From NCBI GenBank assembly GCA_963169345.1, contig CAUJCT010000019.1, positions 105,366-169,365 on the forward strand: a stretch of DNA of 64,000 nucleotides. The letters are read 5' to 3'. Shown in pieces: positions 1,749 to 54,300 of this stretch. The stretch is from Bacteroidota bacterium (GTDB lineage Bacteria > Bacteroidota > Bacteroidia > NS11-12g > UBA955). The stretch's first letter is position 1; every line of letters starts with the position of its first letter. The notes under the pieces are model-generated. The model saw nothing but the letters and a program-made list of their open reading frames with translations. It was not told where the DNA came from and ran no database searches. The position numbers and the translations under genes are program-made.

Positions 1749-1770
1749 AGTTATTTTCAAAAATAACAAA
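1749..1770. promoter_or_regulatory. 22-bp element AGTTATTTTCAAAAATAACAAA containing a perfect 18-bp palindrome GTTATTTTCAAAAATAAC
   Basis: An identical 22-mer recurs at 47537-47558 and a 1-mismatch copy at 47640-47661. It lies upstream of the minus-strand operon that starts at 1650. Confidence 0.4.
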
Positions 1771-14293: not shown

Positions 14294-14295
14294 CT

Positions 14296-15150
14296 ATGAA
14301 AAAAGGAACAGTAGCCATAATACTCCTTGTCTTTAGCGTCCTATCTGGATTTGCTATTGGGGTCTTTAATGTGATAATGGATGACTCAATGGAAAATACG
14401 GAGTCAATAGAATCATATATGGAAGAAAATGATTCAAGTTATAAACGAGTAGATCCATTCGCAGCTTCGGAACTAATTTCAGTATTGAAAAAAATGAAAG
14501 AATCAAAAATTATTCATGCGAAATTTAATGTGAAGCTGTTTAGCATGGATCAAATGAAGCAGTTTGAATCTTTTGAAGGGGAGTACATTCGAAATGAAAT
14601 GGGTGAAACTTATATCTCTTCTTATGAATCTGAGAATTTAATGACTTCGGAATATTTTATTGCTGTTGATCACTTGGAGAAGATGATCTATGTTGAGAAA
14701 CCTGAATTTATGGGGTCTGGAGACGTTTCATCTATGAATATACTCTTCGAACTGGATTCTATTGTTAATTTTCAAGACAGTTCTATTGTTTACAATATGA
14801 TAGATGGTTCATATTCAAAATTGAGCGTCTTTATTGAAACACCCTCCTATTATCAGATTGACATAATTTATGAAACTGCAACAAAAAAAATTTCAAAGCT
14901 TGTTCTTTACCCGTTTCAAGATGTTTTTATTGAGCCTGAGTCTGGTGAAATCGGGAAAATTGAAGTAGAAAACACGGAAAATACTATTGTAGAAGAAGTT
15001 CCTGGACTCATTGTCATTGAATATACCAAACTAGAATGTAATTCGGAAATAAAACAACTAAAAATTGATTCTAAACGATATTTTGAAAATAAAGATGGAA
15101 AACTGGTAGTAAATCGTAAATACAAAAACTATGAAATCGATTACGAATAA
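14296..15150 (+). CDS. membrane-anchored hypothetical protein between the two giant genes
   Basis: 284 aa with N-terminal TM/signal (VAIILLVFSVLSGFAIGVF). It lies 2 nt after the upstream stop and overlaps the downstream giant ORF by 20 nt. Confidence 0.55.
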   Translation: MKKGTVAIILLVFSVLSGFAIGVFNVIMDDSMENTESIESYMEENDSSYKRVDPFAASELISVLKKMKESKIIHAKFNVKLFSMDQMKQFESFEGEYIRNEMGETYISSYESENLMTSEYFIAVDHLEKMIYVEKPEFMGSGDVSSMNILFELDSIVNFQDSSIVYNMIDGSYSKLSVFIETPSYYQIDIIYETATKKISKLVLYPFQDVFIEPESGEIGKIEVENTENTIVEEVPGLIVIEYTKLECNSEIKQLKIDSKRYFENKDGKLVVNRKYKNYEIDYE

Positions 15151-27973: not shown

Positions 27974-30370
27974 ATGCGCATACTCTTTACATTTGCATGT
28001 CTCATTTATGGAAACATAACCTATACACAGGAAATCTTATACTCATTTGACAGTTGCAAGAATGATTTCGGAGCAAATTCATCAAGTTTTGAATATAATT
28101 TCTCAGGTTGTCAGAACAAAAATAGTCAATCTTCATCAGGTAAGACTAGACTAGATCTTAGGTCATTCACCGACAGCCTTAAACTGAAAAATTCGGTTAA
28201 AACAAGCACTGATAATAGCAATGACTATGGAAACAGGATTTTTAACTTTCCGAGACTCACTTACGATTGGTTGAAAAATGAACTTCCCAAGGGCAATGAT
28301 CTTCTAAAGTTTTCTATGAACATGCGCTCAGAAAACTTTGGTACCACATCTCAAAATCCAATGATTAGAAGTGAGCTTATGTACAGTAGATTGTATTTGA
28401 GCCCTACTTTCACTGTTTTGGGACTTCCCTTTACTTCTAATCTGTTTTTTACCACCGAAGCCAACAATACCTATAAAAATAATTTCTTTTCATTCAGGTT
28501 GGATGTGAATGCTTTGAGAAGAATAGCTCAGGAAAGACTCAGAAAGGAAGTTGAGCAAGCAAAAAAGCTGGATAGGTCTAGGCAGCTAGAACTCAATAAG
28601 CAGGCACTTGAAACCAAAAAATACCAGCAGGAGCTTGATAAGGTGGAGTCGGAAATGAATGAATACAAGCAGTGGAATTCGCAGATTCAGAATCAAGCTC
28701 AATTAAAGTCCAAGGCGTATTTGGATAAAGAAAGAGCCCAACTCGAAGAGCAACTTAAAACAGCTTCAGACGAGCAGAAAGAGCAGATGATAGCAGCGTA
28801 CAATCAAAAATCTGATTCGGTACAAAATGCTCTGAGGTCTCAACTTGAAGACTCTGCGGCAAAGTTAAAAGGCACCATGCCCAATTTGGATACATCCAAA
28901 CTCAACAGAATAAACAGGCTCAAAACAAAGATGGAACAACTCAATCAGAGGGCTAAAGAAATTGAGAGTTTAAGACAAAAGGACACATTGGGACTGTCGG
29001 AAAAAGCAGAAGGGTTGCGACATCCTGAGAAATTGAAATCCATGACCCAAGGTCAGTTACCCGGAAAAGGACTAATGAACCGGTTCTTGTCGGTAGACAG
29101 ACTCGGGGTAGGTTTAATTGCACCTATGTATTCAGAGTTCACTTTGAGTGCTGCATCTGTTAAAGGTTTGGACATAGGTGTTTCAAAAACCAATTGGTAT
29201 TACGATATCAGTCTGGGAAGAATGACCAAACAGTTTACCGGCCCATTTTCATCTGTTCAACCTGAATATGACCGAAACATGGCTATAGCCAGAATTGGAC
29301 TTGGAGAAAGAAACAATGCGCATTTAGCTGTAGAATATTTCAGTGCCTTTGACACAAAAGTGACAGACAGCATGTCTCCAATGGTAAACAATGGGGTACT
29401 TGCATTGGAATTTAAATATGTTTTCTTAAAGCATTTAACAGTAGATGGTGATTTGGCTCAAAGTAATTACAAAGAAAAATTCAACAGTCTAAATATTTCT
29501 TCGTCTTCTAATTCAAGCAATTCGATATTCAATATCAGAGACAGCAGAGCATACCGGTTAAAGGCTACACAAGAGGCTGGCAAAAACACAAAGCTGCAGG
29601 TTGAAGCCAGGCAAGTAGGAGCAGCCTTCAGGTCATTGGGTAACCCCTTTTTAAGAAGAAATTTTAGAGAAATCGATGCCAGACTGGAACAAAGTTTCTA
29701 TAAAAAGCAGATACTCTTGCAAGCCAATTACAAAGAGATGCGAGATAATGTTCTGGAATTGAATCAGGCCACCAACAGACTGAAAGGTTGGGGTATCAAA
29801 CTACAAACCGCATTTGAAAAATGGCCTAACCTGACTTTAAGTCACAGCCCATACCAGCAAGGCAATAACCATCCGGATAGCTTATACAGAACCAACAATC
29901 AGTTTTCTATTTCCATGGCAATGCTCACCTACAAAAAGCGATTCAAGGGTCTTAACTGGAATATGATGGCTTGTGCCACCAGGTCAGCCATGGAGATATA
30001 CGGCAGAGGTCCTGTTGACTATAGAATGCTGACGATAACCAATATGGTTCAATTAGGCTTAAGACACAACATCATGTTGAATTACATGTCCAACACAACA
30101 CTGCCTGGAGTAGATTCATTGAACTCAAATTCCATACAATTCAATTATATTTACCTGGCTAAAAAAGGATTTACTATTGGCACAATAGGAGAACATACAA
30201 TTTACAAAAATCAGGCATTCAGATCAGGGGGCGGATTAACAGCGAGTGCCAATTTAATTAAGAATCTTTCATTGTCGGCTCTAGTTCGCTACGATAAAAT
30301 TGATGGATTATGGCGATTAGAGAATCAGGATGTTTGGACCGGAAGGCTTGTGCTTTTATGGAGTTGGTGA
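27974..30370 (+). CDS. outer-membrane beta-barrel-like protein with long Q/E/K-rich coiled-coil insert
   Basis: 798 aa with signal peptide, ~160-aa coiled-coil segment (residues ~180-340) and C-terminal aromatic-terminated strand (…LVLLWSW). Confidence 0.5.
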   Translation: MRILFTFACLIYGNITYTQEILYSFDSCKNDFGANSSSFEYNFSGCQNKNSQSSSGKTRLDLRSFTDSLKLKNSVKTSTDNSNDYGNRIFNFPRLTYDWLKNELPKGNDLLKFSMNMRSENFGTTSQNPMIRSELMYSRLYLSPTFTVLGLPFTSNLFFTTEANNTYKNNFFSFRLDVNALRRIAQERLRKEVEQAKKLDRSRQLELNKQALETKKYQQELDKVESEMNEYKQWNSQIQNQAQLKSKAYLDKERAQLEEQLKTASDEQKEQMIAAYNQKSDSVQNALRSQLEDSAAKLKGTMPNLDTSKLNRINRLKTKMEQLNQRAKEIESLRQKDTLGLSEKAEGLRHPEKLKSMTQGQLPGKGLMNRFLSVDRLGVGLIAPMYSEFTLSAASVKGLDIGVSKTNWYYDISLGRMTKQFTGPFSSVQPEYDRNMAIARIGLGERNNAHLAVEYFSAFDTKVTDSMSPMVNNGVLALEFKYVFLKHLTVDGDLAQSNYKEKFNSLNISSSSNSSNSIFNIRDSRAYRLKATQEAGKNTKLQVEARQVGAAFRSLGNPFLRRNFREIDARLEQSFYKKQILLQANYKEMRDNVLELNQATNRLKGWGIKLQTAFEKWPNLTLSHSPYQQGNNHPDSLYRTNNQFSISMAMLTYKKRFKGLNWNMMACATRSAMEIYGRGPVDYRMLTITNMVQLGLRHNIMLNYMSNTTLPGVDSLNSNSIQFNYIYLAKKGFTIGTIGEHTIYKNQAFRSGGGLTASANLIKNLSLSALVRYDKIDGLWRLENQDVWTGRLVLLWSW

Positions 30371-34712: not shown

Positions 34713-35573
34713 CTACAATGGTTCACAATTTCTTAGGTTGTATCGAAATTGAAACTCGTGGCAGTATCTAATCAGATGATGTTTTGAAACCCAATGATAG
34801 ACACCTGTTATACCTCGTTTTAGATGACTCCAAAAACCTTCAATGGTTTTTGTGTGAATTTCAGGATTATCAAAATCAACATACTCTTTAGCCCCATTAT
34901 TGATTACATAATGTTCTCTTCCCTTTCGACTGACTCTTCTGTATCCCATGTGGTCATCAGTCATTACTACCGTTCCATCATTAGTATAACTCTTGGCAAA
35001 TGAAGAAAGCCCTTTAACTCTTTTTACTACTACAACCCTTACATTTCCTCCTCTTTCAACAAATCCAACTACTGGGGTCTTGTTTTCACTAACTAGACCA
35101 CGTTTGCTTCTAACATATCTTTTATTCTTCATCTTTCCACCAACATAGGTCTCGTCTACCTCCACAGTTCCACAAAGTTTTTTCTTGAATTCAGGGTTGT
35201 TGAACATAGCTTTCCTGATTCTATGCAACATAAACCAAGCTGTTGGCTGGGTTACATTAATTTCTCGAGCAAGACCATAGAAAGAAATACCTTTCTTTGA
35301 ATTGATAAAGGTTATTATGGCTCTTAGCTATTTTTGTATTGGAATGTGTGAGTTCTCGAATATTGTTCCCTTTAAAACGCTAAACTGCTTTTTACAGACA
35401 CTACACTTGTATCTATTTACAGTCTTTAAGTACCAGAATTTCTCATAACAGCCACAATGAGGACAGTCTTGATGAGTGTTCCAATGGATTTGACCTAGCT
35501 GTTCGGTACATTGTTCTTCAGATAAATTCGAAATCTCATAGAGATTTTTAAAATGAAATGTTGAGTTAATCAT
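34713..35573 (-). pseudogene. IS1595-family transposase interrupted by a single in-frame TAG (at 35328-35330), an IS remnant
   Basis: N-terminal zinc-ribbon part (CPHCGCYEKFWYLKTVNRYKCSVCKKQFSVLKGTIFENSHIPIQK), TAG, then the same frame continues LRAIITFINSKKGISFYGLAREINVTQPTAWFMLHRIRKAMF… through the DDE domain (TIEGFWSHLKRGITGVYHWVSKHHLIRYCHEFQFRYN). The TAG sits where family members have Trp (KW). Confidence 0.75.
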
Positions 35574-36352: not shown

Positions 36353-38587
36353 TTGCCAAAGATTATGAAAAAGCAATTCCTAACATTAGTAATAACTCTT
36401 TTGTTTCACACAATAAATGCTCAAAATTTTGATTGGGGCTTTACACTCGGGACATCTCAAAGTGAGGAAGGTTCAAATGTAACCAGAGATGTAAATGGTA
36501 ATGTTTTTATCACTGGACCTTTATTAGGTACACTTGATTTTAACCCTGGTCCTGGAGTCAATAATTTGAGTCTATCAGGTCCTGCATCAATATTTATCGC
36601 AAAATATAATTCAAAAGGTACTTATCAATGGGCTAAAACATTACCTACAAATAACTATGTCATGGCTAAAGATATTGTTACTGATAAATATGGAAATGTG
36701 TATGTTTTAGGGCAGTCAACAGGTGTTATTGATCTTGACCCTGGTTCTGGAACTGTGCTTGATTCTGGATTTTTGTTTTTTATACTTAAATTGAATAGTT
36801 CAGGTCAATATGTTTCGTCTCATGTTTTTAAAACACAACTTCGTGAATTTAATGTTGACCAACTTTGTATGATTCAATTGGGGAAAAATGATAATATATA
36901 TTGTGTTATGAATTATTATCAGAAGATTGATTTGGACCCTGGTCCTGATTCTTTAATACTTGATTCAAAAGCCTTGAGCACATACGTAGTCAAACTTGAT
37001 TCTTCTGGAAGCTTATTATGGGGAGGGAAAATTACTGGAACAAGCGGTATCAATTATATTAATGGGATTGACTTAGATGATGAAGAAAATTTATATTTAA
37101 CCGGAGCATTTCAAACAACTAAGGATTTCGATCTTTTTGGTGGAAATTTAACAATGACTTCGAACGGTCAGTTGGATGCATTTGTGGTGAAATATAATAA
37201 AGATGGAAATCTTATTCATCGGTATTCCATGGGAACTGGTTTAGGTGATAGGGGACAAGCAATTAAAGTCTCTGGTGCCGACTTATATATAAGTGGAAAT
37301 TATACCGGAGGAGGGATTGATTTCGATCCAAGCTCTAGCAGTAAGTCACCTGGAGCGTCAGGTACAATTAATATGTTTTTATTAAAATGGGATACTGCAT
37401 TCAATTATAAGTGGGTTAAGAAAAATGAAGGGGATGCTCAAAATTTTTTAATAAGATATTTAGATGTTAATAGTTGGGGCAATATTACATTAATCGGAAC
37501 TACAGGTGGTATAAGCGTAGACATGGATTTTGACAGTACGAAATTTGCTTATATAAGTACATTTAAAAATTCTGCTTTTGCTTGTAAATATGATTCAAAA
37601 GGAGCTTTAATTTGGATGTCAAGTTTTACTGGAGGTACTAGTAATTCAGATATCAATGTACGAGATGCCTTTGAGGATAATTGGAATAGATTGAGTATTT
37701 GTGGGAATTTTCCATCAATGATCAATATTAATCCATCGGGGTCGACTTTTATAAATACAAATGGTTTCAAAGACATCTTTTTTACAAATCTTCAAAGTAA
37801 TACAACCTATGATACAGCTATTTCATTTTGTGATAGTGTCATTTCACCTAGCGGAAAGTATGTTTGGCTTAGTAGTGGTAAGTATAGCGATACTATACAA
37901 AATGTCAATGGAGGTGATAGTATATTCAGACCCAATTTGACAAATAGAACTCAGTATATGAGCAGTACTATATCAGTCTGTGGACAGTATAAATCACCTT
38001 CGGGGAAGCTATTTAAACAGTCAGGTACTTATTTTGACACAATACCAAACATATATGGCTGTTTCAATTTCCAGACCATCAACCTTACCGTATTGCCCAT
38101 AAGTTATTCAAGCTTAAAAGCTTCCGCTTGCGAATTATACATTTCACCTAGCGGGCGTTATAAATGGTATTCTGGAGGTATTTATACTGATACATTAAAG
38201 AATTATTTCGGATGCGATAGCGTGATTCTAATTGATCTTTCAATCAATAATCCTCAATACGCTTCTATCAAACAAACAGCATGTGGAACTTATACATCTC
38301 CAAGTGGTAAATATACCTATACCTACTCTTTGGTGTTTAAAGATACAATTTCTACGATTGCGGGATGTGATAGCATACTGACTGTCAATTTGACGATTTT
38401 ACCTACTGATAAAGCTGTAGTGCCCGTAAAGGCTTGTGGAACTTATGTTTCTCCAAGTGGCAAGTATATGTGGAACAATAGCGGCACCTATTTTGATACA
38501 CTTAATAATAGTTTCGGTTGCGACAGTATACTAGAAATCAGGCTTGAAATAAACAATTCAGTTTCATCCGTTCTGAATTTCAGCTAA
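36353..38587 (+). CDS. T9SS cargo adhesin-like protein, N-terminal part (SBBP beta-propeller repeats plus 6-7 Cys-containing ~45-aa modules), terminated by an in-frame TAA
   Basis: Signal peptide. DVNGNVFITG / DKYGNVYVLG / DEENLYLTG SBBP-like repeats. Repeated modules C(G/E)(T/L)Y.SPSGKY…G(C)DSI. The frame continues unbroken after TAA 38585-38587 into the next ORF. Confidence 0.6.
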   Translation: MPKIMKKQFLTLVITLLFHTINAQNFDWGFTLGTSQSEEGSNVTRDVNGNVFITGPLLGTLDFNPGPGVNNLSLSGPASIFIAKYNSKGTYQWAKTLPTNNYVMAKDIVTDKYGNVYVLGQSTGVIDLDPGSGTVLDSGFLFFILKLNSSGQYVSSHVFKTQLREFNVDQLCMIQLGKNDNIYCVMNYYQKIDLDPGPDSLILDSKALSTYVVKLDSSGSLLWGGKITGTSGINYINGIDLDDEENLYLTGAFQTTKDFDLFGGNLTMTSNGQLDAFVVKYNKDGNLIHRYSMGTGLGDRGQAIKVSGADLYISGNYTGGGIDFDPSSSSKSPGASGTINMFLLKWDTAFNYKWVKKNEGDAQNFLIRYLDVNSWGNITLIGTTGGISVDMDFDSTKFAYISTFKNSAFACKYDSKGALIWMSSFTGGTSNSDINVRDAFEDNWNRLSICGNFPSMININPSGSTFINTNGFKDIFFTNLQSNTTYDTAISFCDSVISPSGKYVWLSSGKYSDTIQNVNGGDSIFRPNLTNRTQYMSSTISVCGQYKSPSGKLFKQSGTYFDTIPNIYGCFNFQTINLTVLPISYSSLKASACELYISPSGRYKWYSGGIYTDTLKNYFGCDSVILIDLSINNPQYASIKQTACGTYTSPSGKYTYTYSLVFKDTISTIAGCDSILTVNLTILPTDKAVVPVKACGTYVSPSGKYMWNNSGTYFDTLNNSFGCDSILEIRLEINNSVSSVLNFS

Positions 38588-43775: not shown

Positions 43776-46700
43776 TTATTTAAATTGCGTTTTATCTATT
43801 GCAATAATGCATGAAGATATCATTTCATCAAGTGTATTTGAAAATTGACAGTTCTCAATTAGCCATTCAATTTGCTTACTTGATATTGTGACGTTTTTGT
43901 GCGAAAGGTCTTTAAGTGTGTAAATTTTTCTAACTCTTGATTTTTGGCCTTTTAATTTATCTAATTCTGGTATAAGTATTTCTAGCCAAAGATCTGCGAA
44001 TTGATCTAAGTCGACATAAAGATCATCTTCAGTTTCAGGATTAAATAAATTTAATAATTTTTCGGCATTTAATTTGTCTTTCCCTGAGAGTGAATTAACT
44101 TTTAAATTGTGATTTAATATATTTTCTCCTTGATTTAATGCTCTTCTTTTTTTCCATGGCAACAATTGCTTCTCTTGACTTCGTAGTTTTCTAATTATGT
44201 CCTTTAGCTTTTGTGAAGTATCAATTTCTTTCCAATTTCGTTGAACAATGGTTGTTTTTGACAAGTATGATTTAAGTAAATAAGTAATGTCAGAAAAATC
44301 TGTGTAACCTTTGTTATTTTCATCAATCAATAACCATTTTGGACTTTTTCGGGTACTTCCTCTAAAGGAAAAGAAACACCAATTTTTGTCGGTTTCAATA
44401 AAACTGATAGCTGTCTTAACGGTTGAATCAACATCTTTGTAAAGATCATAAATAGCATGGTCTATTAGTGCGCTTTCCCCTTCTATAAGGCCATATAAAT
44501 CTTGTGTGCTATCCCTTACGCCTTCCCATTCATAATCACTACTTGAATATTCTGTGTAAGCTTCAATAATATTTTGAGTACTCAAACTATTTTTGAGATA
44601 TTTCTCATAAATGACTTTAGGTATTCCTACATTGTTTCCAATTAAATCTTCTGTAAGCAATAAAGTGTCTATTATCCTTCTGTCGCCGTTTAAGGAGAAT
44701 TCTTCAGAATCATTTGGCCACATTACTGTAATTTCATTATGTTCGCAATCCATCCTTTCAATACGGCCAATACGCTGTTCAATAACCCTAAGTACGCTTG
44801 GCATGTCTAGTAAGATAAGACAGCTGGAATCTTGAAGATTAATCCCTTCAGACATAGCATCAGAACAAAAAGCAATCAACTTTTCTTTTGAATGATTTTC
44901 TAGTGAAAACAGCTTCATTACTTCGGTTCTGTCTTTGCTGTTATGTCCTGCTGCAACAATGGTTTTAAATTGGGGATTTCTTTCTTGAAGTAACTTGTTT
45001 AAGTAATCAAGTGTGATTACTGTTGAATCAAAAGCTAATATCTTGTTATGCTCTTCTAAAGCCTTAATAATGGTATCGATCTTACTAATTTCTCGATTTT
45101 TACTTAATTGATTTACAAGTCTTCCAATTTTTTCATATATTTCAATCTCTTTGTCACATGTAGTTTTATACAATGTCTCATCATATAACCAATGATAACT
45201 TTCTTGTAAAAGTCTTTTATCTATAAACATTTTAGGCACTATGTTTTTAAGTTTTTTTACCTTTCCAATCATATCACCTGATAAGTTTTTAGTAGAGTTT
45301 AGTCCAAATTCTTGATTAGCGGCATTTGTCCCATATAAGTATTCATGAATGGCACATTGGGAAGATCTCAATTTTACCCTAACCATATAGGCTGCTAATG
45401 CTGTTGCTGAAGTAAACCTTTGGTTAATATAATTAACCATTTCTTCATCTCCTTTAATAAAATTTGGGATTTTGATTCTTTGCAAATAATGAATTCCTTT
45501 CAATTTGGATGTCAATGTTGAAATTTGCATCCCAATTTTTTTGTCAGAGACTGTCTCATTAGTTTCATAAACGATTGAATTTGTTTTCGGGTACTTACAA
45601 ATATGCCCTAACCTATTAGTATATAATTTTGGAGATCGTTCAATCATTTTATTCAGTTCTTTTTTCGTTCGACGAACTATAAACTGATTCACATATTTTT
45701 TAAGTTGCTCAAGGTGCTGTTTGTTAATGCCCTTTTTTCTTTTCTTCCTTAACTCAAAATAAGTTTTTAAATCGTCGTCACTAAGGTTATCAATATCAAG
45801 AAGTTCAATTAATCTCAAAATATCATCTATTTTTTTATTGATGGGGGTTGCGGTTGACAAAATTACATTACATGAACCTTTTGGAATAATTGCTTTACTT
45901 CTTTTAGAATGAGGATGAAGGTAATTATGAGCTTCATCAATAACCAATATATCAGAACTATGGATAGCCTTTTGGATATTCCTTTGATTTTTATCCAAGC
46001 CAAGACTTAATTTCCCCATTGATTCAATTTTATTATAAAGCACAAAATGTTCCTGTTCTCTTTCCCAATTTTCAATAACAGTTTTAGGACAAATTATTAA
46101 CGCATTTGAACGATCCTTTCTACCATTTTCCCATAGCCAATGAAACAATGTATAAGCAAGAGCCGTAGCAAATTTAGTTTTCCCACTTCCTGTTGGGTCA
46201 GCTATTAGTACTCGTCCTTGATCTTGGATAATTTTCATTGCTCGCGCTATTCCCATTTTTTGAGAAGGCCACAATTTATGGGTTATTAAAGCTTGATAAA
46301 GAACAGGATAATCTTTCATCCATTTGCTTTCTAAAATTTCAGAAATCGCTCTGGCTAAAGCCTCTTGCCAGGTTGCTTCTTTGAATAATTTACTAAATAA
46401 TTCAATCAGGTGGTAGTTATAATCATCGGATATAGTATAATAATATTCAGCTATTCGTTTAATATCTGAATATTGCTCTTTTTCCTTTTTAGACGAAGAA
46501 CTTTGAATTCTAATGTTTGCTTCTGTTTGTAAAATAGTTCCTGATTTGCTAAAATTGGATGAACCCAATATGGCTGTTTCGTCACCTATATATATTTTTG
46601 CATGGAGTTTATCCCTTACTTTAAATTCTATACAATTATTATTGATTTTCTCAATAATATTAAGAACAGAACCACATAGTTTTAAACTAACATTTTGCTT

Positions 46701-47009
46701 TACCCAATAATTTTTTATCTCGGTTGGAAGTGAATAGTGAGGAAGTCGAGCGCTCACTCTCTCATCAGGATCAAAGCCTATTACAATTCGAAGCTTTTTT
46801 AACTTTGGATAATCATTAACTCCAAAAACATCTATTAAATTGGATAAGGAAGTAAATCCTGTAAGTATTAAATAATTCTCTGAATTTTGAATGTCCTTTA
46901 AAAGCAAATCTTTGACTCTTCGATCTTGTTCCTTAAGATTTAAAGGAAAATCTTCTTGATTTGGCAAGTCAAGTTTATAGTTAAAGTCGAATAGATTAGG
47001 TGTTTTCAT
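43776..47009 (-). CDS. PLD-family (HKD) nuclease domain fused to an SF2 (DEAH-type) helicase with ~320-aa C-terminal unknown domain, a candidate single-protein defence gene
   Basis: HKD motif HAKIYIGDETAILGSSNFS (res ~136-154). Helicase motif I LIADPTGSGKT, Ia LIICPKT, II VIDEAHNY, III ILSTATP, V FCSDAMSEGINLQ, VI QRIGRIER. Confidence 0.85.
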   Translation of the reverse strand: MKTPNLFDFNYKLDLPNQEDFPLNLKEQDRRVKDLLLKDIQNSENYLILTGFTSLSNLIDVFGVNDYPKLKKLRIVIGFDPDERVSARLPHYSLPTEIKNYWVKQNVSLKLCGSVLNIIEKINNNCIEFKVRDKLHAKIYIGDETAILGSSNFSKSGTILQTEANIRIQSSSSKKEKEQYSDIKRIAEYYYTISDDYNYHLIELFSKLFKEATWQEALARAISEILESKWMKDYPVLYQALITHKLWPSQKMGIARAMKIIQDQGRVLIADPTGSGKTKFATALAYTLFHWLWENGRKDRSNALIICPKTVIENWEREQEHFVLYNKIESMGKLSLGLDKNQRNIQKAIHSSDILVIDEAHNYLHPHSKRSKAIIPKGSCNVILSTATPINKKIDDILRLIELLDIDNLSDDDLKTYFELRKKRKKGINKQHLEQLKKYVNQFIVRRTKKELNKMIERSPKLYTNRLGHICKYPKTNSIVYETNETVSDKKIGMQISTLTSKLKGIHYLQRIKIPNFIKGDEEMVNYINQRFTSATALAAYMVRVKLRSSQCAIHEYLYGTNAANQEFGLNSTKNLSGDMIGKVKKLKNIVPKMFIDKRLLQESYHWLYDETLYKTTCDKEIEIYEKIGRLVNQLSKNREISKIDTIIKALEEHNKILAFDSTVITLDYLNKLLQERNPQFKTIVAAGHNSKDRTEVMKLFSLENHSKEKLIAFCSDAMSEGINLQDSSCLILLDMPSVLRVIEQRIGRIERMDCEHNEITVMWPNDSEEFSLNGDRRIIDTLLLTEDLIGNNVGIPKVIYEKYLKNSLSTQNIIEAYTEYSSSDYEWEGVRDSTQDLYGLIEGESALIDHAIYDLYKDVDSTVKTAISFIETDKNWCFFSFRGSTRKSPKWLLIDENNKGYTDFSDITYLLKSYLSKTTIVQRNWKEIDTSQKLKDIIRKLRSQEKQLLPWKKRRALNQGENILNHNLKVNSLSGKDKLNAEKLLNLFNPETEDDLYVDLDQFADLWLEILIPELDKLKGQKSRVRKIYTLKDLSHKNVTISSKQIEWLIENCQFSNTLDEMISSCIIAIDKTQFK

Positions 47010-47209
47010 TTATAAAAATTAATTTAATTGTGTTGTCTCCTTCACTGAGGATAGAGATCAAACAAAAATAATCTATAAATTAAATAAAAATATGGTTGAG
47101 TTTTCAGTGGGATTTGAGATGATTTGAGAATAAATTAAAATAACTGATCCTTATAGTATAGTTCTCATATTTTGTTTCAAACTATAAAAGATGAATACTA
47201 TTCAAAAAT

Positions 47210-47476
47210 TTAAAAAGACTTTCGCTTGTATTTGTCAATAAAAAGCTTGACGGACTTACTGTTGTATAGAATCAATTTTCTTACCGGTTGAGAAAATTCA
47301 ATCTCTCCTTGGTTTCTTAACTTTTGGATGGTAGACTTGCTTTTTATATTTAAGATAGACATTAGTTCTTTTTCAGTTATCCATTCTTTTTCTATCTTCA
47401 AATTTTCTTTGACTTTAAATATTATTTCATCGATTAATTTATAGAATGCTTCTGTTTCAATTATAATGACTTCCAT
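47210..47476 (-). CDS. excisionase/AlpA-like helix-turn-helix DNA-binding protein (mobile-element regulator)
   Basis: 88 aa. C-terminal …ITEKELMSILNIKSKSTIQKLRNQGEIEF… resembles Bacteroidota Xis-type HTH proteins. It lies upstream of and co-oriented with the PLD-helicase. Confidence 0.65.
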   Translation of the reverse strand: MEVIIIETEAFYKLIDEIIFKVKENLKIEKEWITEKELMSILNIKSKSTIQKLRNQGEIEFSQPVRKLILYNSKSVKLFIDKYKRKSF

Positions 47477-47536
47477 ATAAATGCAAAGTTATATCTAAAA
47501 TGACAAAAAAACAACTTAAGTTGCAGATAATTAGGT

Positions 47537-47558
47537 AGTTATTTTCAAAAATAACAAA
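47537..47558. promoter_or_regulatory. second copy of AGTTATTTTCAAAAATAACAAA palindrome-containing element
   Basis: Identical 22-mer to 1749-1770. Located ~60 bp upstream of the HTH gene start in the divergent region with 47890(+). Confidence 0.4.
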
Positions 47559-47639
47559 CTAATTTATTGTATTATTATATCAATAAATTGGTAAATAAAT
47601 ACTATTTTAGTGATATAGAAGAGTTTATCAAATTTTCTT

Positions 47640-47661
47640 AGTTATTTTTAAAAATAACAAC
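47640..47661. promoter_or_regulatory. third, 1-mismatch copy (AGTTATTTTTAAAAATAACAAC), still a perfect 18-bp palindrome
   Basis: Located 110 bp from the previous copy in the same intergenic region. Confidence 0.35.
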
Positions 47662-47889
47662 GGTCATTAATCAACATTTTTCGAATTTATCCACTTTGAA
47701 AAGTTGGGATTGATTTTTGAATAATTAATTTAGAAAATATCGTAGTTTAAATCAACGATTCTAAGAATTATTCAAAAGCTATATAATTACAGATTTCTTA
47801 GACATAAATAAACGGCTTTTCTGAAATTACTTTTTTCTAAAATTTTTTGTAATTTAGCAGAGAATTACATTAAATCAGATTAAACAACT

Positions 47890-48432
47890 ATGACAAAAAA
47901 AGAAATAGAACAATGGATTATAGTCTTGAATGACCTCTTAATATTGACAGAAAATGAATTGAGCATGCAGGAAGATTTCAACTCTTACACATCTAGTAAG
48001 ATTAGCAATCTTCAGAGTGAGCTGAATGCAAACGAAGCTGCATTAAACAAAACATCCAATGATCCAACCCAGCAAGCTACTATTAAACACAATTTTGTTA
48101 ATTCTTTAAATGATCTTTCCAGAAGAATTAATGAGTTGCGTTATAAACCTATGCCACCATTTCAAATTGAAAAAGAATTTCGCCACTTTCATCAGACAAA
48201 CTTCAATTTCATAAAGCCAATTATGGCTCAAGTACCTTTTAGTTACAGTATTACACCAGACCCTCAGAACATTTACGGGAAAATACATAGAACTTGGGCA
48301 ATTAAGAATGTTTCAGAACTAAATGAATTTCTTAATTTAATAAATGACAAATTCGAAAGAGACATTAAACAATTAGATATGACTGAAATTGAGGGTGTTT
48401 CTCCAGTCTACTTTGTAATACATAGCAACTAA
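47890..48432 (+). CDS. hypothetical protein (island cargo)
   Basis: 180-aa ORF, no recognisable motifs. Confidence 0.5.
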   Translation: MTKKEIEQWIIVLNDLLILTENELSMQEDFNSYTSSKISNLQSELNANEAALNKTSNDPTQQATIKHNFVNSLNDLSRRINELRYKPMPPFQIEKEFRHFHQTNFNFIKPIMAQVPFSYSITPDPQNIYGKIHRTWAIKNVSELNEFLNLINDKFERDIKQLDMTEIEGVSPVYFVIHSN

Positions 48433-48652
48433 TTATATTGCATGAAAAGTAAAATTACATCCCAGTAAAATAAATCAAATCAGAAAATGCTAATAAAGGA
48501 ACTAATGGTGTAAATAGACAATATTCACAAGTTCACGGCAATAGAGGCATGCAACTCAACCCTAATCAGTCTAATAAGCAATAAACTTTGTCTTACTTTT
48601 TATAGAACAGACACATTCCCTTTTTGGGTTTAAGGAGGAAAATAATTTAAGT

Positions 48653-49615
48653 ATGCAGTTCATTTTTGACACAAATTATTATCGAGGTATTGTATTTGGA
48701 AAGGAATTGCTAGATATTCAAAAAAAGCTTTTTGAGCAAAAGGATAGGGAGCGTCTAAAAGGACATGAAATTCTATTTCCTAATATTGTCGCCATTGAAT
48801 TAATTAGCCATTTAAAGAGCGGTGATAATGCCCTTAGAGTATGTTATACTGCTCTACACTTTCTGGCTAATCATTGTAATAGAAACGGGGCGAATAAATT
48901 CAAAGGAACTTATATGCCAACTTATGAGGACCTAATTTCATTTTATTTCTTTCAAACTCCATCTGATCAATTTGGTATAGTTAATCGAAATTTAAATAAA
49001 TATGCTAATGACATTGGAGGGGTTTATAATATTGCAAATACTTTTGATTATAGGGATGTCATTAAGGAAATATCAGAATTTAAGAAATTTGGTATAAACA
49101 ATTTGATCTCAAATATTGAAAAGCACTATTTACCTGCGATACATCCTAATAAAATTTCAGATAAAGATATTTTCAATAAAAATGCAGAAGTGAAGGAGGA
49201 GTTTGAGCGGGCGTATAAAGTTGGAGATTATCATAAATGGTGGGGGTTGGTTTTTCTATCAATGGCAATGCAAGATAAAAAAATTGAGAAAATCAAACTC
49301 ACAAAGGAAGAGTTTCAACATGGCTTTTTGAATGATTTCAAGGTGTCAATTGATTTCTTTGTCAATCATGTTTGGCGTAAAGTTGCGGACACCAAAAAAG
49401 TAGAGTATTTTTATTCTCCTGAGACCGATGGAAAAAAAAGGTGGAATAGTTATTATGATATGCAGCTAATCTTTGCCACTGAATTTGAAAATTATAAGAA
49501 TCGTAATACAATCTTAGTAACAACTGAAAGAAAGATACAGGAGGCTTTTGCAAAAATGGGAAAAGAAAATCTTGTAATTAGTCCAGGCGAGTACCAAGAA
49601 TTGTTGGAAAAATAA
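48653..49615 (+). CDS. hypothetical protein with PIN-like N-terminus (weak)
   Basis: 320 aa. It starts MQFIFDTNYY… (the D-T-N pattern of PIN domains), with E in IVAIELISHL. Confidence 0.45.
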   Translation: MQFIFDTNYYRGIVFGKELLDIQKKLFEQKDRERLKGHEILFPNIVAIELISHLKSGDNALRVCYTALHFLANHCNRNGANKFKGTYMPTYEDLISFYFFQTPSDQFGIVNRNLNKYANDIGGVYNIANTFDYRDVIKEISEFKKFGINNLISNIEKHYLPAIHPNKISDKDIFNKNAEVKEEFERAYKVGDYHKWWGLVFLSMAMQDKKIEKIKLTKEEFQHGFLNDFKVSIDFFVNHVWRKVADTKKVEYFYSPETDGKKRWNSYYDMQLIFATEFENYKNRNTILVTTERKIQEAFAKMGKENLVISPGEYQELLEK

Positions 49616-50099
49616 AGAAAGTAGCAAAGTTAGGCGACTAGCCCAACCCAGGCATATAGAGCTTAAAAGCGTTAGGCATAAACACAAGCAATTCATAAGC
49701 ACACTTTTATTCTGATTCCTTTATGACTTTTTTGCAGCGACACCCTGAAAAATGGCTTTATTTTTAATTTTTCCTGTTTTGTTTTTTCTTTTGCAAAATT
49801 ACCATTTGCAGACTTAGGAAGTTTTCTAATGAAATAAAATCTTCGGCTATTGATAAAGTTTAATATTTGGATGCGTCTCGTTCGGTCAGGTTTCTGCATT
49901 ATTGTTTACCTATGCTTATATTGTCATTAGCTGTGTTTTGAATTTGTTGCTCAATAAAGTTATCATTATCACATGCAAGTCAACTGACAACCTTGGAATC
50001 TAGAATTGAGGAACGAAAAAATGAGTAAAGCTCATATTATGCCACTATCAAAGTAAGTTATAGGAATTCTCAGAAATTAAATCTCAACAAATGCTGACT

Positions 50100-50394
50100 C
50101 GAAGTATATTTTACCAAGCCAAAATGCAAATCGAATACCAATTAGTAATTATGCCATTTTTACGCACTTTATCGTATGGGATATAAGGGAAAGACTACTA
50201 GACATAGTTTCAGAGCCTTTGCAATATCTAACATCAAAGAAAAGCATTGTTCCCGCCACGAGGTTGTTGACCGACAATTAGCCCATGCTCATAGAAACTG
50301 TGTTAATGCTGCTTATGACAGGTCGCAATTTCTAGATGAGGAAGGTAATGATGTAAGAATGGGCAGATTACATAGACAAGATGAAATAATTTAA
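50100..50394 (+). pseudogene. decayed C-terminal fragment of a P4-type tyrosine integrase (frameshifted)
   Basis: One frame (from 50108) gives ILPSQNANRIPISNYAIFTHF. The ORF at 50176-50394 in another frame gives TRHSFRAFAISN…VDRQLAHAHRNCVNAAYDRSQFLDEEGNDVRM, matching the conserved integrase C-terminus (HGFR…QLAHA..N.VRAAYNRA.YL.ER). The catalytic N-terminal portion is absent. Confidence 0.55.
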
Positions 50395-50454
50395 CTTGAA
50401 AGCTTATTATTGTTAAATTTGAAAATAGTTATTTAGTTTAAGGAAATAATTGAT

Positions 50455-51075
50455 ATGGAAAAACTACTTGCAAGAATAAATAGCGCAAATAATCCTATAA
50501 TTGTTCCTGTTAATATAGAAAAATATTCAACACCGAATAATTGTTTTTACAATGTAATGAAGAAAGTAGCGTTGGATGGTGGCCATATTGTTTATGGATG
50601 GAAAATACATCATGGTAAATTGCTTGATGAGGCGGAAAGGCACGCAGTATGGAGGTCTCCTAATGGGGAGTTAATAGATATATCGCCATTCAATTCGAAT
50701 GGAAAAATTACATTTATAGAGGAAGATATGGGTTGGAAATACAGAGGACAATTTGAGGATAACATTCGAGTTAATATTACAGACAATCCATTAGTTGATG
50801 ACTTAATTTTATTGTGTGAGACAATTACAAAGCTCTGGCAAACGAGTTCAAGAAAGTCATCCCAAGAGATTTCCATTCATGTATTAATAAAGAAGCAAAT
50901 TGATGTACTTGAAGCAAACAAAATTAAGTTCGAATTTTTTGCTTTGAAAAACCAAGATCGTGAGTGCCTTTGTTTCTGTGGTAGTTCCTTAAAGTATAAA
51001 AAGTGCCATGTTTTTAATGAAGAAACTCAGCGAGAAATCCTTGGTTGGGCTAATAATGTCCTTAAAGAAGTTTAA
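50455..51075 (+). CDS. hypothetical protein with C-terminal SEC-C-like metal-binding motif
   Basis: 206 aa ending …CLCFCGSSLKYKKCH… (compare SEC-C CPCGSGKKYKKCC). Confidence 0.5.
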   Translation: MEKLLARINSANNPIIVPVNIEKYSTPNNCFYNVMKKVALDGGHIVYGWKIHHGKLLDEAERHAVWRSPNGELIDISPFNSNGKITFIEEDMGWKYRGQFEDNIRVNITDNPLVDDLILLCETITKLWQTSSRKSSQEISIHVLIKKQIDVLEANKIKFEFFALKNQDRECLCFCGSSLKYKKCHVFNEETQREILGWANNVLKEV

Positions 51076-51116
51076 ATAATAATAAAAAATATATTACAGC
51101 ATAATTTATACTTTAG

Positions 51117-52340
51117 TTACCTCAAACTCCCAAACACTTTGTCTGAGGCTTCGTCCACAGCCTCGTCTCTAATACTCGAAAGGTAAATTTGGGTAGTTTT
51201 AATATCGCTGTGCCCTAACATTTTACTAACTACTGAAATATCTATACCGGAGTCTCTGGCTAATGATGCAAATGAATGACGAATGGTATTGGTTGACATA
51301 TATTCAAAATCAATCCCAAGATGAGTCGCCAATTTCTTTAAATCTCTGTTATAATTTCTGATAGCCCCTCTCGAAATAGAATATGCCCTCTCTAAGCTCA
51401 TATCTTTATTTAGGAATGGTAAAATGTAATCTTCACTAGTTTTGTCCTCTGAAAAATGTTTAATAAGCGTTTCAAGTGGCTCCGAAATGCCGACATTATA
51501 CAACTTAGCCGTTTTTCGCCGATTATAGTAAATTCTATCATTTGTAATATCCTTGAGTTTTAGAAAACATATATCGGTGAAGCTCGCTCCTCTCATATAA
51601 AATGAGAACAGGAACACCAATCTAGTGCGCTCCATTGTTTTGTTAGTCAGTTTAGCTGACTTGATCTTTTCCAAAGCCTCCTTTGGCAAAGCTCTTTTAG
51701 CGGTATCTTGTCTTCTTACCTGATATTGGTCGAATGGATAGGCATCTTTGGGAAGTATTTTGTCAGAAATTGCTCTGTTCACCAATGCCCTCAATGCTCT
51801 AAGTTTTACCCCCAAACCATTTACACTATTACCTTTGGCTAGATACTTTTGTTCCATCTTTTTAATCCAAAAAGGAGTGATGTGTTCTAAGGGAATATCA
51901 GCAGTGCCATTGTAATTAATTACCCACTGCAGAAAGTCGTTGTATGCTTTTGCATTCCCGAACCTTCCTGCACCCTTCATTTCTTCAATAACAGTCTTTG
52001 TGTATTCAGCTATGCTGACGGCAATTGATTCATTCAAAATTCTAGTTTTAATCTCAGAAATCCCCATTCTTTTTATATCTCCAGATTCATCTAAGGCAGA
52101 CAATATGCTAAAAGCCTCAGCACTTCTGGTTTTTATCTTGGCATTTTCAGCCCCAATATTCTTGATTTTTTTACAGGTAGAGCGTATAGTTTGGCTGCTT
52201 TCATTCCATTCGCTTGGTTCTAATGTAACTCCCAAAGGAATTGAGGTACTTTTACGGTTTGCTATTATTCGCAGTATTAAAGGATAACCGTCCCTTTTTC
52301 TGTTTCTTTCATCTAAAATAACCCTGACACTATAAGACAT
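51117..52340 (-). CDS. site-specific tyrosine recombinase (Bacteroidota phage-integrase family)
   Basis: 407 aa. C-terminal catalytic region …RHSFASLARDSGIDISVVSKMLGHSDIKTTQIYLS… (R…HxxR…Y). Confidence 0.85.
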   Translation of the reverse strand: MSYSVRVILDERNRKRDGYPLILRIIANRKSTSIPLGVTLEPSEWNESSQTIRSTCKKIKNIGAENAKIKTRSAEAFSILSALDESGDIKRMGISEIKTRILNESIAVSIAEYTKTVIEEMKGAGRFGNAKAYNDFLQWVINYNGTADIPLEHITPFWIKKMEQKYLAKGNSVNGLGVKLRALRALVNRAISDKILPKDAYPFDQYQVRRQDTAKRALPKEALEKIKSAKLTNKTMERTRLVFLFSFYMRGASFTDICFLKLKDITNDRIYYNRRKTAKLYNVGISEPLETLIKHFSEDKTSEDYILPFLNKDMSLERAYSISRGAIRNYNRDLKKLATHLGIDFEYMSTNTIRHSFASLARDSGIDISVVSKMLGHSDIKTTQIYLSSIRDEAVDEASDKVFGSLR

Positions 52341-52342
52341 AT

Positions 52343-52373
52343 TGCAAACATAATTTGCAAACCATTTGCAAAC
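52343..52373. promoter_or_regulatory. three tandem TTGCAAAC direct repeats (spacing 12/11 bp), candidate arm-type integrase/Xis binding sites or int promoter elements
   Basis: ttgcaaac at 52343-52350, 52355-52362 and 52366-52373, immediately upstream of the integrase start and ~100 bp from the tRNA-fragment att site. Confidence 0.35.
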
Positions 52374-52473
52374 AAATTTTGTTTCAATATATATTAATTT
52401 GAATTTATTTTTTGTTTATATATATGAATATCAATTATATAATGTAATTCATGTATCATAATAAACTAGTATT

Positions 52474-52522
52474 CCTCAGATTTCTAATCTGTGGGTCAGG
52501 GGTTCGAATCCCTTCGGGATCA
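52474..52522 (+). tRNA. partial tRNA gene: 3' ~49 nt (anticodon arm, variable loop, T-arm, 3' acceptor strand) of a tRNA-Arg(TCT)-like gene, a probable att-site remnant
   Basis: tcaga-TTTCTAA-tctgt anticodon arm (U33, anticodon TCT, A37). Variable loop gggtc. T-arm aGGGG-TTCGAAT-CCCtt. 3' strand cgggatc + a. No matching 5' acceptor strand or D-arm upstream, only AT-rich DNA. Confidence 0.5.
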
Positions 52523-52530
52523 CTAGCATC

Positions 52531-52560
52531 AAAGCCTCCACGTATGTGGAGGCTTTTTTT
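52531..52560 (+). terminator. Rho-independent terminator (AAAGCCTCCACgtatGTGGAGGCTTTTTTT)
   Basis: Perfect 11-bp stem, 4-nt loop, 7 T's directly after the tRNA fragment. Confidence 0.7.
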
Positions 52561-52750
52561 ATGCCCTTAAAAAATCCCCAAGCGTCATCAGACCTTGAGG
52601 GATTTTTGAAAGGGCATAAAAAATAAGTCTTGCATCAGCAGGACTTTGATGCTTTTGCAGGACCTTTTTCTGGGATCATGAAATAATCCCTAGGCCCCAA
52701 GCGTCGCCAGAACTTGAGGGATTTTTGAAGAGGTATAAAAAATAAGTATT
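52561..52750. repeat. two tandem copies (~85% identical, ~55-65 nt) of a hairpin-forming element
   Basis: Copy 1 at 52576-52628 and copy 2 at 52695-52747 share ccccaagcgtc..cagaac/cttgagggatttttgaa.gg.ataaaaaataagt. Copy 1 is embedded in a long imperfect inverted repeat ATGCCCTTaaaaaatcccCAAG…CTTGagggatttttgAAAGGGCAT. Confidence 0.5.
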
Positions 52751-53058
52751 ACATTTTCATCGGGTCATTTTGTGAATTTGAATTACTGGAATCAATACCC
52801 TTACATTCTAATTGGCCGATTTTTGAATTCTGAACGGACTTCTTCCTAATCCATTCACTCATTTTTAACACTATATTTGTCTAACATTTATTATAATGGA
52901 ACGGTAAAAAAGACGATTATTATTACAGTTACAGTACTTTGTATAATAGTAGTTCGTTTTATTACTAATGACGATACAGGGGATAATTGTTAGGTCAAAC
53001 TTGGTTGAATGTATTGTGCTTGTAATTGGGGTGTTTTAAGGTTTAATGAAATTATTTT

Positions 53059-54030: not shown

Positions 54031-54300
54031 TGTCCAGATTATGTTGAGTCATTTAATGAACTTTTCTGCAATTTATGAATGGGTCAATTTCTTTCAAAAT
54101 TATAAATCGGGTTTCAAAGTAACCTTATTGCTAACACAACGTTTGAGAAATTCCCTTCTTAGTTTTTATATGAATTTCTCTAATAATTTGAAAAGCATAT
54201 TGAGATTGTGAGGTATACTAACTTAAAGGAAGCTTTGCCGATTCAATGTGCCTAAAAAGATTTATAGAATTTATTTTAGTATTTTTGAGACATCTCGATT

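Follow-up and report, generated by a model that had tools for sequence, protein, structure and literature searches.

The 10K island of Riemerella anatipestifer carries an IntN1-like integrase at the 3' end of a tRNA-Arg gene, and in that system the integrase together with attP suffices for both integration and excision (PMC6764341). The locus analysed here lies in a 64,000-nucleotide stretch of contig CAUJCT010000019.1 from a Bacteroidota bacterium (positions 105,366 to 169,365 of the contig), which we call the window, and it consists of a tyrosine integrase gene adjoining a 3' fragment of a tRNA-Arg(TCT) gene. With a probability of about 0.8, we read positions 51117-52526 as the integrase-proximal junction (attR type) of an integrative element inserted in the anticodon-loop sublocation of this tRNA gene.

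The window element resembles the 10K island in its Flavobacteriales host, its IntN1-like Bacteroidota tyrosine integrase, its tRNA-Arg 3' target and its strain-variable cargo, and both have a compact module of integrase plus att site (1.7 kb in the island, 1.4 kb in the window). However, the Riemerella island has both of its 53-bp direct repeats and its excision and integration have been demonstrated, whereas the window presents a single att end. The repeat of the 10K island is made of the tRNA 3' end and the terminator, whereas the block in the window starts in the anticodon stem; the two are likened by type and not by integrase identity.

The elements NBU1 and NBU2 of Bacteroides (integrases IntN1 and IntN2) also have the integrase at one end beside att, integrate at a tRNA 3' end and show the same Bacteroidota-type architecture, and relaxase or type IV coupling protein (T4CP) genes, as found in mobilisable elements, occur in two relatives of the window element (L118 and L116; comparison stretches and contigs are given L-numbers throughout, such as L001, L113 and L118). 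The window integrase is nevertheless at most 30% identical to annotated Bacteroides integrases, and the window gave no sign of mob or oriT genes. The common core of NBU1 is about 14 bp, which is short beside the identity block of 46 nt from the anticodon stem in the window.

Heterobivalent integrases of the lambda type share with this locus an N-terminal arm-binding domain and direct repeats in tandem whose distance to the core is fixed, with repeats on both sides of the core in L001. They differ from it in that the window repeats overlap the integrase promoter and that just two clear arm repeats lie on the P side. In the integrative and conjugative element (ICE) and cis-mobilisable element (CIME) systems of streptococci, integrative elements and miniature elements accrete in tandem at one att site. 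The reuse of a resident att by a second element in L001, and short units flanked by tRNA 3' ends and terminators in L038 and L105, are similar to this, although the far end of the second element in L001 is unseen and mobilisation of the small units is unobserved. The window locus is of the kind expected for a tRNA-targeting element in its integrase, its tRNA core, its arm architecture and the polymorphism at its boundary; a second att end was not found in the window.

The integrase and the tRNA-Arg fragment

The features of the junction, in window coordinates, are as follows.

51117-52340, minus strand: intact tyrosine integrase of Bacteroidota type, 407 aa, with Arm-DNA-bind_5, SAM_5 and catalytic domains (Pfam)
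52345-52352, minus strand: TATGTTTG, probable -7 promoter box (TAnnTTTG) of the integrase, overlapping the integrase-proximal TTGCAAAC copy at 52342-52349
52353-52374, plus strand: pair of 11-bp direct repeats in tandem, ATTTGCAAACC and ATTTGCAAACA, which from their conservation and fixed spacing are candidates for arm-type binding sites of the integrase
52378-52476, no strand assigned: AT-rich spacer from the arm repeats to the core, the rest of the P arm
52477-52522, plus strand: att core, the 3' 46 nt of tRNA-Arg(TCT), tRNA positions 28-73
52531-52556, plus strand: intrinsic terminator of the original tRNA gene, native flank
52558-52754, plus strand: unit of about 120-135 nt in two copies (one partial), pre-existing flank outside the island

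An earlier note on this DNA had placed an intact tyrosine integrase 130 bp from a tRNA fragment. The gene is intact and does adjoin the fragment, although the distance from fragment to the integrase ATG is 136 bp. Pfam identified the catalytic domain (PF00589, E=2.5e-17) and the arm-binding domain (PF17293, E=4.6e-9), and the full catalytic R-K-R-H-Y set (R216, K276, R354, H377 and Y386) is invariant in the family alignment. Compared with its orthologue in L118, a JGI contig, the gene has a dN/dS of 0.064 at a dS of 0.25, and it is under purifying selection. Its identity to annotated integrases of phages and plasmids does not exceed 30%, and a search for relatives by back-translation in the JGI metagenomes and IMG/VR returned nothing close.

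The tRNA fragment matches the common Flavobacteriales tRNA-Arg(TCT) at 46 of 46 nt (52477-52522), from position 28 in the 5' strand of the anticodon stem to the discriminator. This alignment agrees with the tRNA-Arg(TCT) identity proposed earlier and moves the start of the fragment from 52474 to 52477. Its 22-nt 3' end (52501-52522) is present in 103 stretches of a species-representative genome collection, nearly always within complete tRNA-Arg genes, the majority of them with anticodon TCT. A complete tRNA at the site was ruled out, as the earlier note had supposed: ARAGORN found no tRNA in the 64-kb window, Rfam at gathering thresholds gave no match in the window, and a local Rfam scan returned a sub-threshold tRNA match at 52463-52522 (21.8 bits versus a gathering score of 29). 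The fragment is followed by the intrinsic terminator described before, with an 11-bp stem, a 4-nt loop and a T-run.

An identity block that reaches from the anticodon stem to the 3' end of the tRNA defines the anticodon-loop sublocation class of tRNA-targeting integrases (bioRxiv 10.1101/2020.11.02.365908), and the extent of the block in the window bears the signature of this class. The identity of the fragment with positions 28-73 upholds the proposal that it is the att-type core of a tRNA-targeting integrative element. The anticodon loop TTTCTAA (52481-52487) lies between the stem halves CAGA and TCTG; these stem halves probably are the core-type half-sites, and the 7-nt loop is the likely crossover region.

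The side on which the island lies

The earlier note had allowed that the island could extend rightwards to include the copper cluster. Five other species (L038, L105, L017, L011 and L064) have a complete tRNA-Arg(TCT) whose downstream sequence is 77-94% identical to window 52523-~52745, and hairpins homologous to the window terminator occur after the intact tRNA-Arg in all five. Because of these homologous flanks, the right flank of the fragment is taken as the normal sequence 3' of tRNA-Arg(TCT).

Comparison with relatives located the breakpoints. The Logan contig L001 (ERR10643337), whose sample series also yielded contigs 100% identical to the window, is 99.97% identical to window 48740-52526 and wholly different thereafter. 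In L113 (integrase 77% identical), similarity begins at the integrase stop codon and ceases with the final base of the fragment, and the cargo is unrelated. L118 (integrase 94% identical at the nucleotide level) has the integrase, the repeats, the core and the right flank in common with the window, and other cargo beyond window 49610. The similarity breakpoints with L001 and L113 fall at 52523-52526, and similarity continues past them only where the same native flank is present (L118). Between the window and L118, identity is 100% in the arm repeats and in the core, 96.6% in the right flank, 91% in the spacer, 87% at third codon positions of the integrase and 79% in the region of a decayed P4-type integrase remnant. 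The presence/absence polymorphism is bounded by the core, with different cargo in L118, L113 and L115. Because the right flank follows intact tRNA-Arg in five species, and from the comparisons with L001, L113 and L118, we regard it as settled on this evidence that the fragment has the island on its left. Extension to the right into the copper cluster is ruled out by the same native flank and by the breakpoints in the relatives.

The order of integrase, arm sites, core and terminator would also fit an unintegrated attP on a plasmid, a phage or an excised element, or an assembly artefact at a repeated tRNA sequence, and Logan contigs do break in or near the core, L002 stopping at 52506 and L003 beginning at 52866. 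We consider this highly improbable, given that, past the core, the flank has homologues 3' of intact chromosomal tRNA-Arg genes in five species and that an independent contig (L118, from JGI) spans integrase, core and the same flank. In addition, the surroundings contain substrates of the type IX secretion system (T9SS), giant adhesin-like genes and the copper cluster, and no replication, conjugation or virion genes, and no close match was found in phage or plasmid collections. A junction in a chromosome is therefore the reading that we follow.

The unit of about 120-135 nt in the right flank follows the tRNA-Arg terminator in several species. Other copies were found at L038:3512-3642, L105:1991-2122, L017:3067-3325, L011:6830-7086 and L010:397-528. 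The layout is a conserved box CCAAGCGTCG..GACCTTGAGGGGATTTT..AAAGGGCATAAAAA, then a copy-specific hairpin with Ts, then TTTTGCAGGACC...CTGGGATCAYG..TAATCCC; RNAalifold on these downstream units gave weak support and no convincing common fold. In L038 and L105 the unit is followed by a further copy of the tRNA 3' end (from the T-loop) and a terminator, and is bracketed in this way by duplicated 3' ends. These bracketed units resemble att scars of a T-loop-targeting integrase class, or miniature elements of that class; the T-loop sublocation is typical of P4-type integrases. The 3' end of tRNA-Arg(TCT) is a recurrent insertion point across the compared genomes. Further to the right, L120 (99% identical) diverges from the window at 54056 (L120:1466), right after an orphan 323-aa gene, and because of this divergence the segment 52523-54056 itself borders variable DNA on its right.

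Arm-site candidates and the integrase promoter

Copies of TTGCAAAC start at 52342, 52355 and 52366, so that three of the six copies in 64 kb lie within 32 bp. These had been described as three evenly spaced repeats and as candidate arm sites. Three copies are present, at spacings of 13 and 11 nt that are not strictly even; two of them behave like arm sites in their invariance and spacing, whereas the integrase-proximal copy is not conserved as TTGCAAAC and coincides with a TAnnTTTG box. The 28-nt block ATAATTTGCAAACCATTTGCAAACAAAT at 52350-52377 is invariant in the window, L001, L118, L113 and L115, where integrase identity goes down to 64% and the adjoining spacer diverges; the core of L115 is tRNA-Leu(TAG)-like. 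The same layout is found in L116, whose integrase is 37% identical; its core is tRNA-Val(TAC)-like and its repeat is co-varied, GTGCGAAC (TTGTGCGAACA twice). In each of the five elements examined, L116 among them, 106-107 nt separate the end of the last repeat from the anticodon loop, and these elements use three different tRNAs. The length of the spacer is kept in L113, L115 and L116 despite the divergence of its sequence, and the repeat 21-mer ATTTGCAAACCATTTGCAAAC recurs across the core in L001, after a different terminator. From the invariant block, the fixed spacing, the far-side copy in L001 and the arm-binding domain of the integrase, the two 11-bp repeats appear to be good arm-site candidates.

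The promoter consensus of Bacteroidota is TAnnTTTG at -7 and TTTG at -33. In the window, L118, L113 and L115, TAnnTTTG is found at -12 from the ATG and TTTG at -32/-36, and the integrase-proximal copy does not keep its TTGCAAAC reading in the last three. This third copy is better read as the -7 box of a predicted integrase promoter. The overlap between arm sites and promoter suggests that the integrase could be autoregulated, with a nearly leaderless transcript.

Perhaps the TTGCAAAC repeats are solely promoter or operator of the integrase (-33 TTTG, -7 TAnnTTTG) and not arm-type sites, as might be argued from the promoter boxes held by four elements and from the position of the repeats against the start codon. 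This seems hardly probable, since the identical 21-mer lies across the core in L001, where no integrase gene starts, the repeat-to-loop distance of 106-107 nt is fixed across different tRNAs and also with the different repeat of L116, and the integrase has a domain dedicated to arm binding. The two roles are also compatible, in that Int could autoregulate through arm sites that overlap its own promoter. We thus keep the two 11-bp repeats as the arm-site candidates.

About a dozen iterons of the TTGCAAAC type were also seen in one intergenic region of a phage-like contig (L119:4100-4620; IMG/VR UViG_3300035208_004279). No integrase was found near them, and L119 was judged unrelated to the window element. 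The TTGCAAAC octamer may be a recurrent protein-binding motif in mobile DNA of Bacteroidota.

A further insertion at the core

Past its core, L001 has a terminator of its own and two ATTTGCAAAC arm repeats, as well as 1.2 kb that is non-coding. It also carries Gabija as a complete system (GajA, E=4.5e-166; GajB, E=2.5e-130), along with a serine-recombinase fragment with a 'Recombinase' domain (L001:1-6123). From this alignment, the Gabija-bearing segment is inserted exactly at the core and the site is a live hotspot, as the earlier note had anticipated. The core of L001 has one substitution, G to A at 52516, and L001 diverges from the window after 52526; because of these two observations the exchange in L001 must lie 5' of 52516, which is consistent with a crossover in the anticodon loop.

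Arm repeats on both sides of the core would be expected if L001 were an attP (circular form), and also if a second element sat in tandem at a resident attR core. Because the window island contains none of the L001-specific DNA, the tandem insertion is favoured. A search with the GajA of L001 did not return an identical protein (best 58%), and the far end of the Gabija segment was not seen.

Contents of the island

To the left of the integrase, the following features were annotated.

43776-47009, minus strand: fusion of a PLD nuclease and a SNF2/DEAD helicase, 1077 aa, defence-like (Pfam); island membership from GC content only
47210-47476, minus strand: HTH_17 protein, probable excisionase or regulator (HTH_17, E=6e-7; phrog_66, 'excisionase and transcriptional regulator')
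47890-48432, plus strand: 180-aa cargo protein, no match in Pfam, PHROG, PADLOC or NCBIfam
48653-49615, plus strand: 320-aa cargo protein, no match in Pfam, PHROG, PADLOC or NCBIfam
50030-50394, plus strand: remnant of a P4/CP4-57-type integrase (its C-terminal third), decayed, the reading frame shifting near 50170 and 50339 and broken by in-frame stops
50455-51075, plus strand: 206-aa cargo protein with a C-terminal SEC-C-like Cys motif (phrog_37148, a family of unknown function, E=1e-14)

The PLD-SNF2 helicase gave partial matches to DpdE (99 bits, cut-off 500), DrmD (79 bits, cut-off 610) and PLD-antiphage (56 bits, cut-off 1100), and no partner genes of DISARM, Dpd or PLD-helicase systems were found beside it. 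It is defence-like only, and was not placed in a known system. Of the cargo described in the earlier note, Pfam supports the helicase and the helix-turn-helix (HTH) protein; the SEC-C motif is borderline at 19.8 bits against a cut-off of 20.4, and the PIN-like start of the 320-aa protein (MQFIFDTN...) found no Pfam match and no BLASTP similarity to the PIN_12 protein of L118. The AlphaFold2 (AF2) model of the 320-aa protein was unusable (pLDDT 37), and similarity to L118 stops at 49610, just within the 3' end of its gene. In the relatives, the cargo includes NA-iREase2 and RelA_SpoT (L113), PIN_12, DUF5677, CoiA_N and a TrwC fragment (L118), and a relaxase and a T4CP (L116).

The HTH_17 protein is 39% identical to the product of a gene directly beside the integrase in L115, and it is a probable excisionase or regulatory partner of the integrase. 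Because of this resemblance and of the excisionase PHROG, the element reaches at least to 47.2 kb. An 18-nt palindrome, GTTATTTTnnAAAATAAC, has only three copies in the window (1750-1767, 47538-47555 and 47641-47658). Two of them lie where the HTH_17 gene and the gene of the 180-aa protein diverge, in their promoter region; the third is 45.8 kb away and 5' of a TM2-domain gene, and a similar sequence occurs in the gap region of L113 near 16240. The palindrome may be an operator.

PHROG matches in the window were limited to the integrase, the excisionase-like protein, the helicase and one unknown family, with no virion, packaging or lysis genes. A large ICE extending to the left was also considered, and was set aside as the window has no conjugation or mobilisation genes.

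The earlier note had also reported a frameshifted C-terminus of a P4-like integrase at 50100-50394. Its identity was borne out, and its start lies about 70 bp further upstream, at 50030. The frameshift-corrected translation of 50030-50386 matched NCBIfam PRK09692 (E=4.3e-15) at profile positions 280-395 of 413, while Pfam alone missed it. With 55 bits against a cut-off of 434, spread over three frame segments, it is a pseudogene fragment of the family and not a member gene. It has the C-terminal catalytic region of P4/CP4-57-type integrases, including RHSFR, LAHA...AAY and the EWADYID tail, but in contrast to these it keeps only some 120 residues at the C-terminal end, out of about 413, and these are interrupted by frameshifts and stops; nothing is left of the first two thirds of the protein or of any att site that went with it. 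The remnant region is 79% identical to L118, which is about neutral divergence by comparison with the integrase dS of 0.25. Because it is common to both at this divergence, the remnant was already linked to the integrase in the common ancestor of the window and L118, and therefore gives no evidence of a recent second insertion in the window genome. The idea of successive insertions at one hotspot is supported by the insertion exactly at the core in L001, but not by the remnant, which is inherited and unproven as a succession within this genome.

The missing partner end

Several observations weigh against an integrated element with its junction at 51117-52526. The far boundary (the intact tRNA copy) could not be identified in the window, as had been stated before: searches by exact k-mer, and searches that tolerated up to 3 mismatches, gave no second core, second arm block or tRNA 5' part in it, including the 52 kb left of the fragment. 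L113 has no intact tRNA-Arg within 10 kb on its cargo side, and the canonical two-ended structure is unseen in the window integrase clade. The comparison with relatives gave cargo polymorphism bounded by the core, but no true empty site in a close relative. The Pfam scan of open reading frames (ORFs) in the window returned no relaxase, type IV secretion system (T4SS) or replication genes. The left boundary (about 43.7 kb) is drawn from GC content, which falls from ~0.40 to ~0.30 near 43.5 kb; the limit of 43776 proposed earlier marks this shift, and there is no att repeat there. Finally, the arm repeats overlap promoter motifs of the -33/-7 type, and promoter function could explain part of their conservation.

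Further searches for the other end were negative. A sensitive Rfam scan of 27 kb gave no further tRNA-like piece, and homology to the upstream flanks of intact tRNA-Arg in 17 relatives gave no left junction. For the empty site, searches by flank genes were uninformative: the 323-aa protein of the right flank is nearly an orphan, and all contigs with the PKD gene of the left flank are of the same strain. L120, the 99% relative found through the 323-aa protein, starts inside the repeat unit and diverges again at 54056, and gave no empty site. Synteny with L028, where a tRNA-Arg lies near homologues of window genes 4875-6014 and 27974-30370, was rejected as uninformative, its gene order being inconsistent with the window. 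An 803-aa gene of L113 is 52% identical to the window gene 27974-30370 (798 aa) and has the same relative orientation, which suggests that L113 and the window share chromosomal backbone to the left. L113 also has, at 7721-7793 (minus strand), a 73-nt tRNA-like gene called as tRNA-Leu(TAA), although a tRNA-Leu would be much longer. Its anticodon loop, AACTAAG, is without U33, and it lies ~2 kb past the tRNA-Arg fragment, among small ORFs; it may be a suppressor-like or element-borne tRNA.

A two-ended island at tRNA-Arg(TCT) was found elsewhere, in JBIKRF010000007.1 (L100 and L040, ~42.9-58.7 kb), with an intact tRNA and an adjacent Bacteroidota-type integrase on the same strand. It has a 68-nt direct repeat, from about tRNA position 7, at a distance of 15.7 kb, and its integrase is 23% identical to that of the window. 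Unlike the window clade, it uses a different sublocation and a different placement of the integrase.

The only oddity of the locus is this missing partner end beside a well-maintained integrase. We lean towards an island that is truncated or separated from its attL, and hence unable to excise; an attL that lies beyond the window or was moved by rearrangement is possible, although less likely.

A different explanation is that the integrase and the orphan tRNA fragment are resident, vertically maintained and no longer self-moving, and act as a standing docking platform that captures circular elements with matching core and arm sites and turns over an array of defence genes. Strong purifying selection on the integrase although attL is undetectable in the window would fit such a platform, as would the same module and flank with different cargo in the 94% relative L118, the position of the module near the same 798/803-aa backbone gene in L113, and the capture of the Gabija segment exactly at the core in L001. 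However, cargo differs behind the integrase, on its 3' side, and not at the core where captures would land, and purifying selection is equally expected of recently mobile elements. Moreover, relaxase or T4CP genes, which are typical of mobilisable elements that are self-contained, occur in L118 and L116, and a single capture event was observed, with its far end unseen. We consider such a platform unlikely, and prefer an integrated element of which the window holds the attR-type end.

Surroundings of the island

The window genome has a low GC content (~35%) and Bacteroidota gene content, with T9SS sorting domains and PKD/CHU_C adhesin-like proteins; giant proteins and the copper-resistance cluster are also among the window genes. 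Two giant ORFs of 2392 and 3778 aa, the latter with DUF6443, occupy 7115-26467 and are part of a same-strand gene string (4875-32153) whose last member is a T9SS-sorted protein. In L028, homologues of the first and last members of this string adjoin each other.

An IS1595-family transposase with its Zn-ribbon and DDE parts as separate ORFs is found at 34713-35500 (and at L004:12682-13542), within a stretch of ~11 kb (32.2-43.6 kb) that has no counterpart in L113. A 744-aa ORF (36353-38587) contains in-frame tandem repeats of ~195 bp at 36534-36947. Near the left end, a GC-rich non-coding stretch of ~220 nt (~1790-2010) within an AT-rich intergenic region, 5' of the TM2-domain gene (2012-2671), has the look of a structured-RNA leader; Rfam at gathering threshold gave no match.

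Proposed mechanism and implications

By analogy with integrases of the lambda and IntN1 types, from which we infer arm binding, crossover position, the role of excisionase (Xis) and immobility, the locus could have worked as follows. The N-terminal arm-binding domain of the integrase would sit on the two 11-bp repeats, and the catalytic domains, about 107 bp away from them, would engage the half-sites CAGA and TCTG in the anticodon stem. Strand exchange would take place in or near the 7-nt anticodon loop. At the far end, the tRNA would be made whole by the 3' part that the element brought, and the original 3' part, displaced together with its terminator, would be left beside the integrase gene, as the fragment that is present in the window. 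The HTH_17 protein is the likely excision cofactor, and the dead P4-type integrase would have been inherited with the element, beside the defence-like PLD-SNF2 helicase and other proteins. The core is probably still competent for recombination, given the Gabija insertion at the core of L001.

The 1.4-kb module of integrase and att site is a candidate site-specific integration tool for Flavobacteriales, as has been done for Riemerella. If the unlikely docking platform were true, a module of this kind would work without an intact tRNA gene and would take ATTTGCAAAC-bearing cassettes, as an integron-like collector of defence genes in freshwater Bacteroidota. The defined anatomy helps the annotation of island boundaries in metagenome-assembled genomes. 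For this little-characterised clade of Bacteroidota integrases, the comparisons give an att anatomy with an anticodon-loop core, two invariant 11-bp repeats and a fixed spacing of ~107 nt, in a clade that uses at least three different tRNAs and carries mostly defence-type cargo in uncultured freshwater and environmental lineages.

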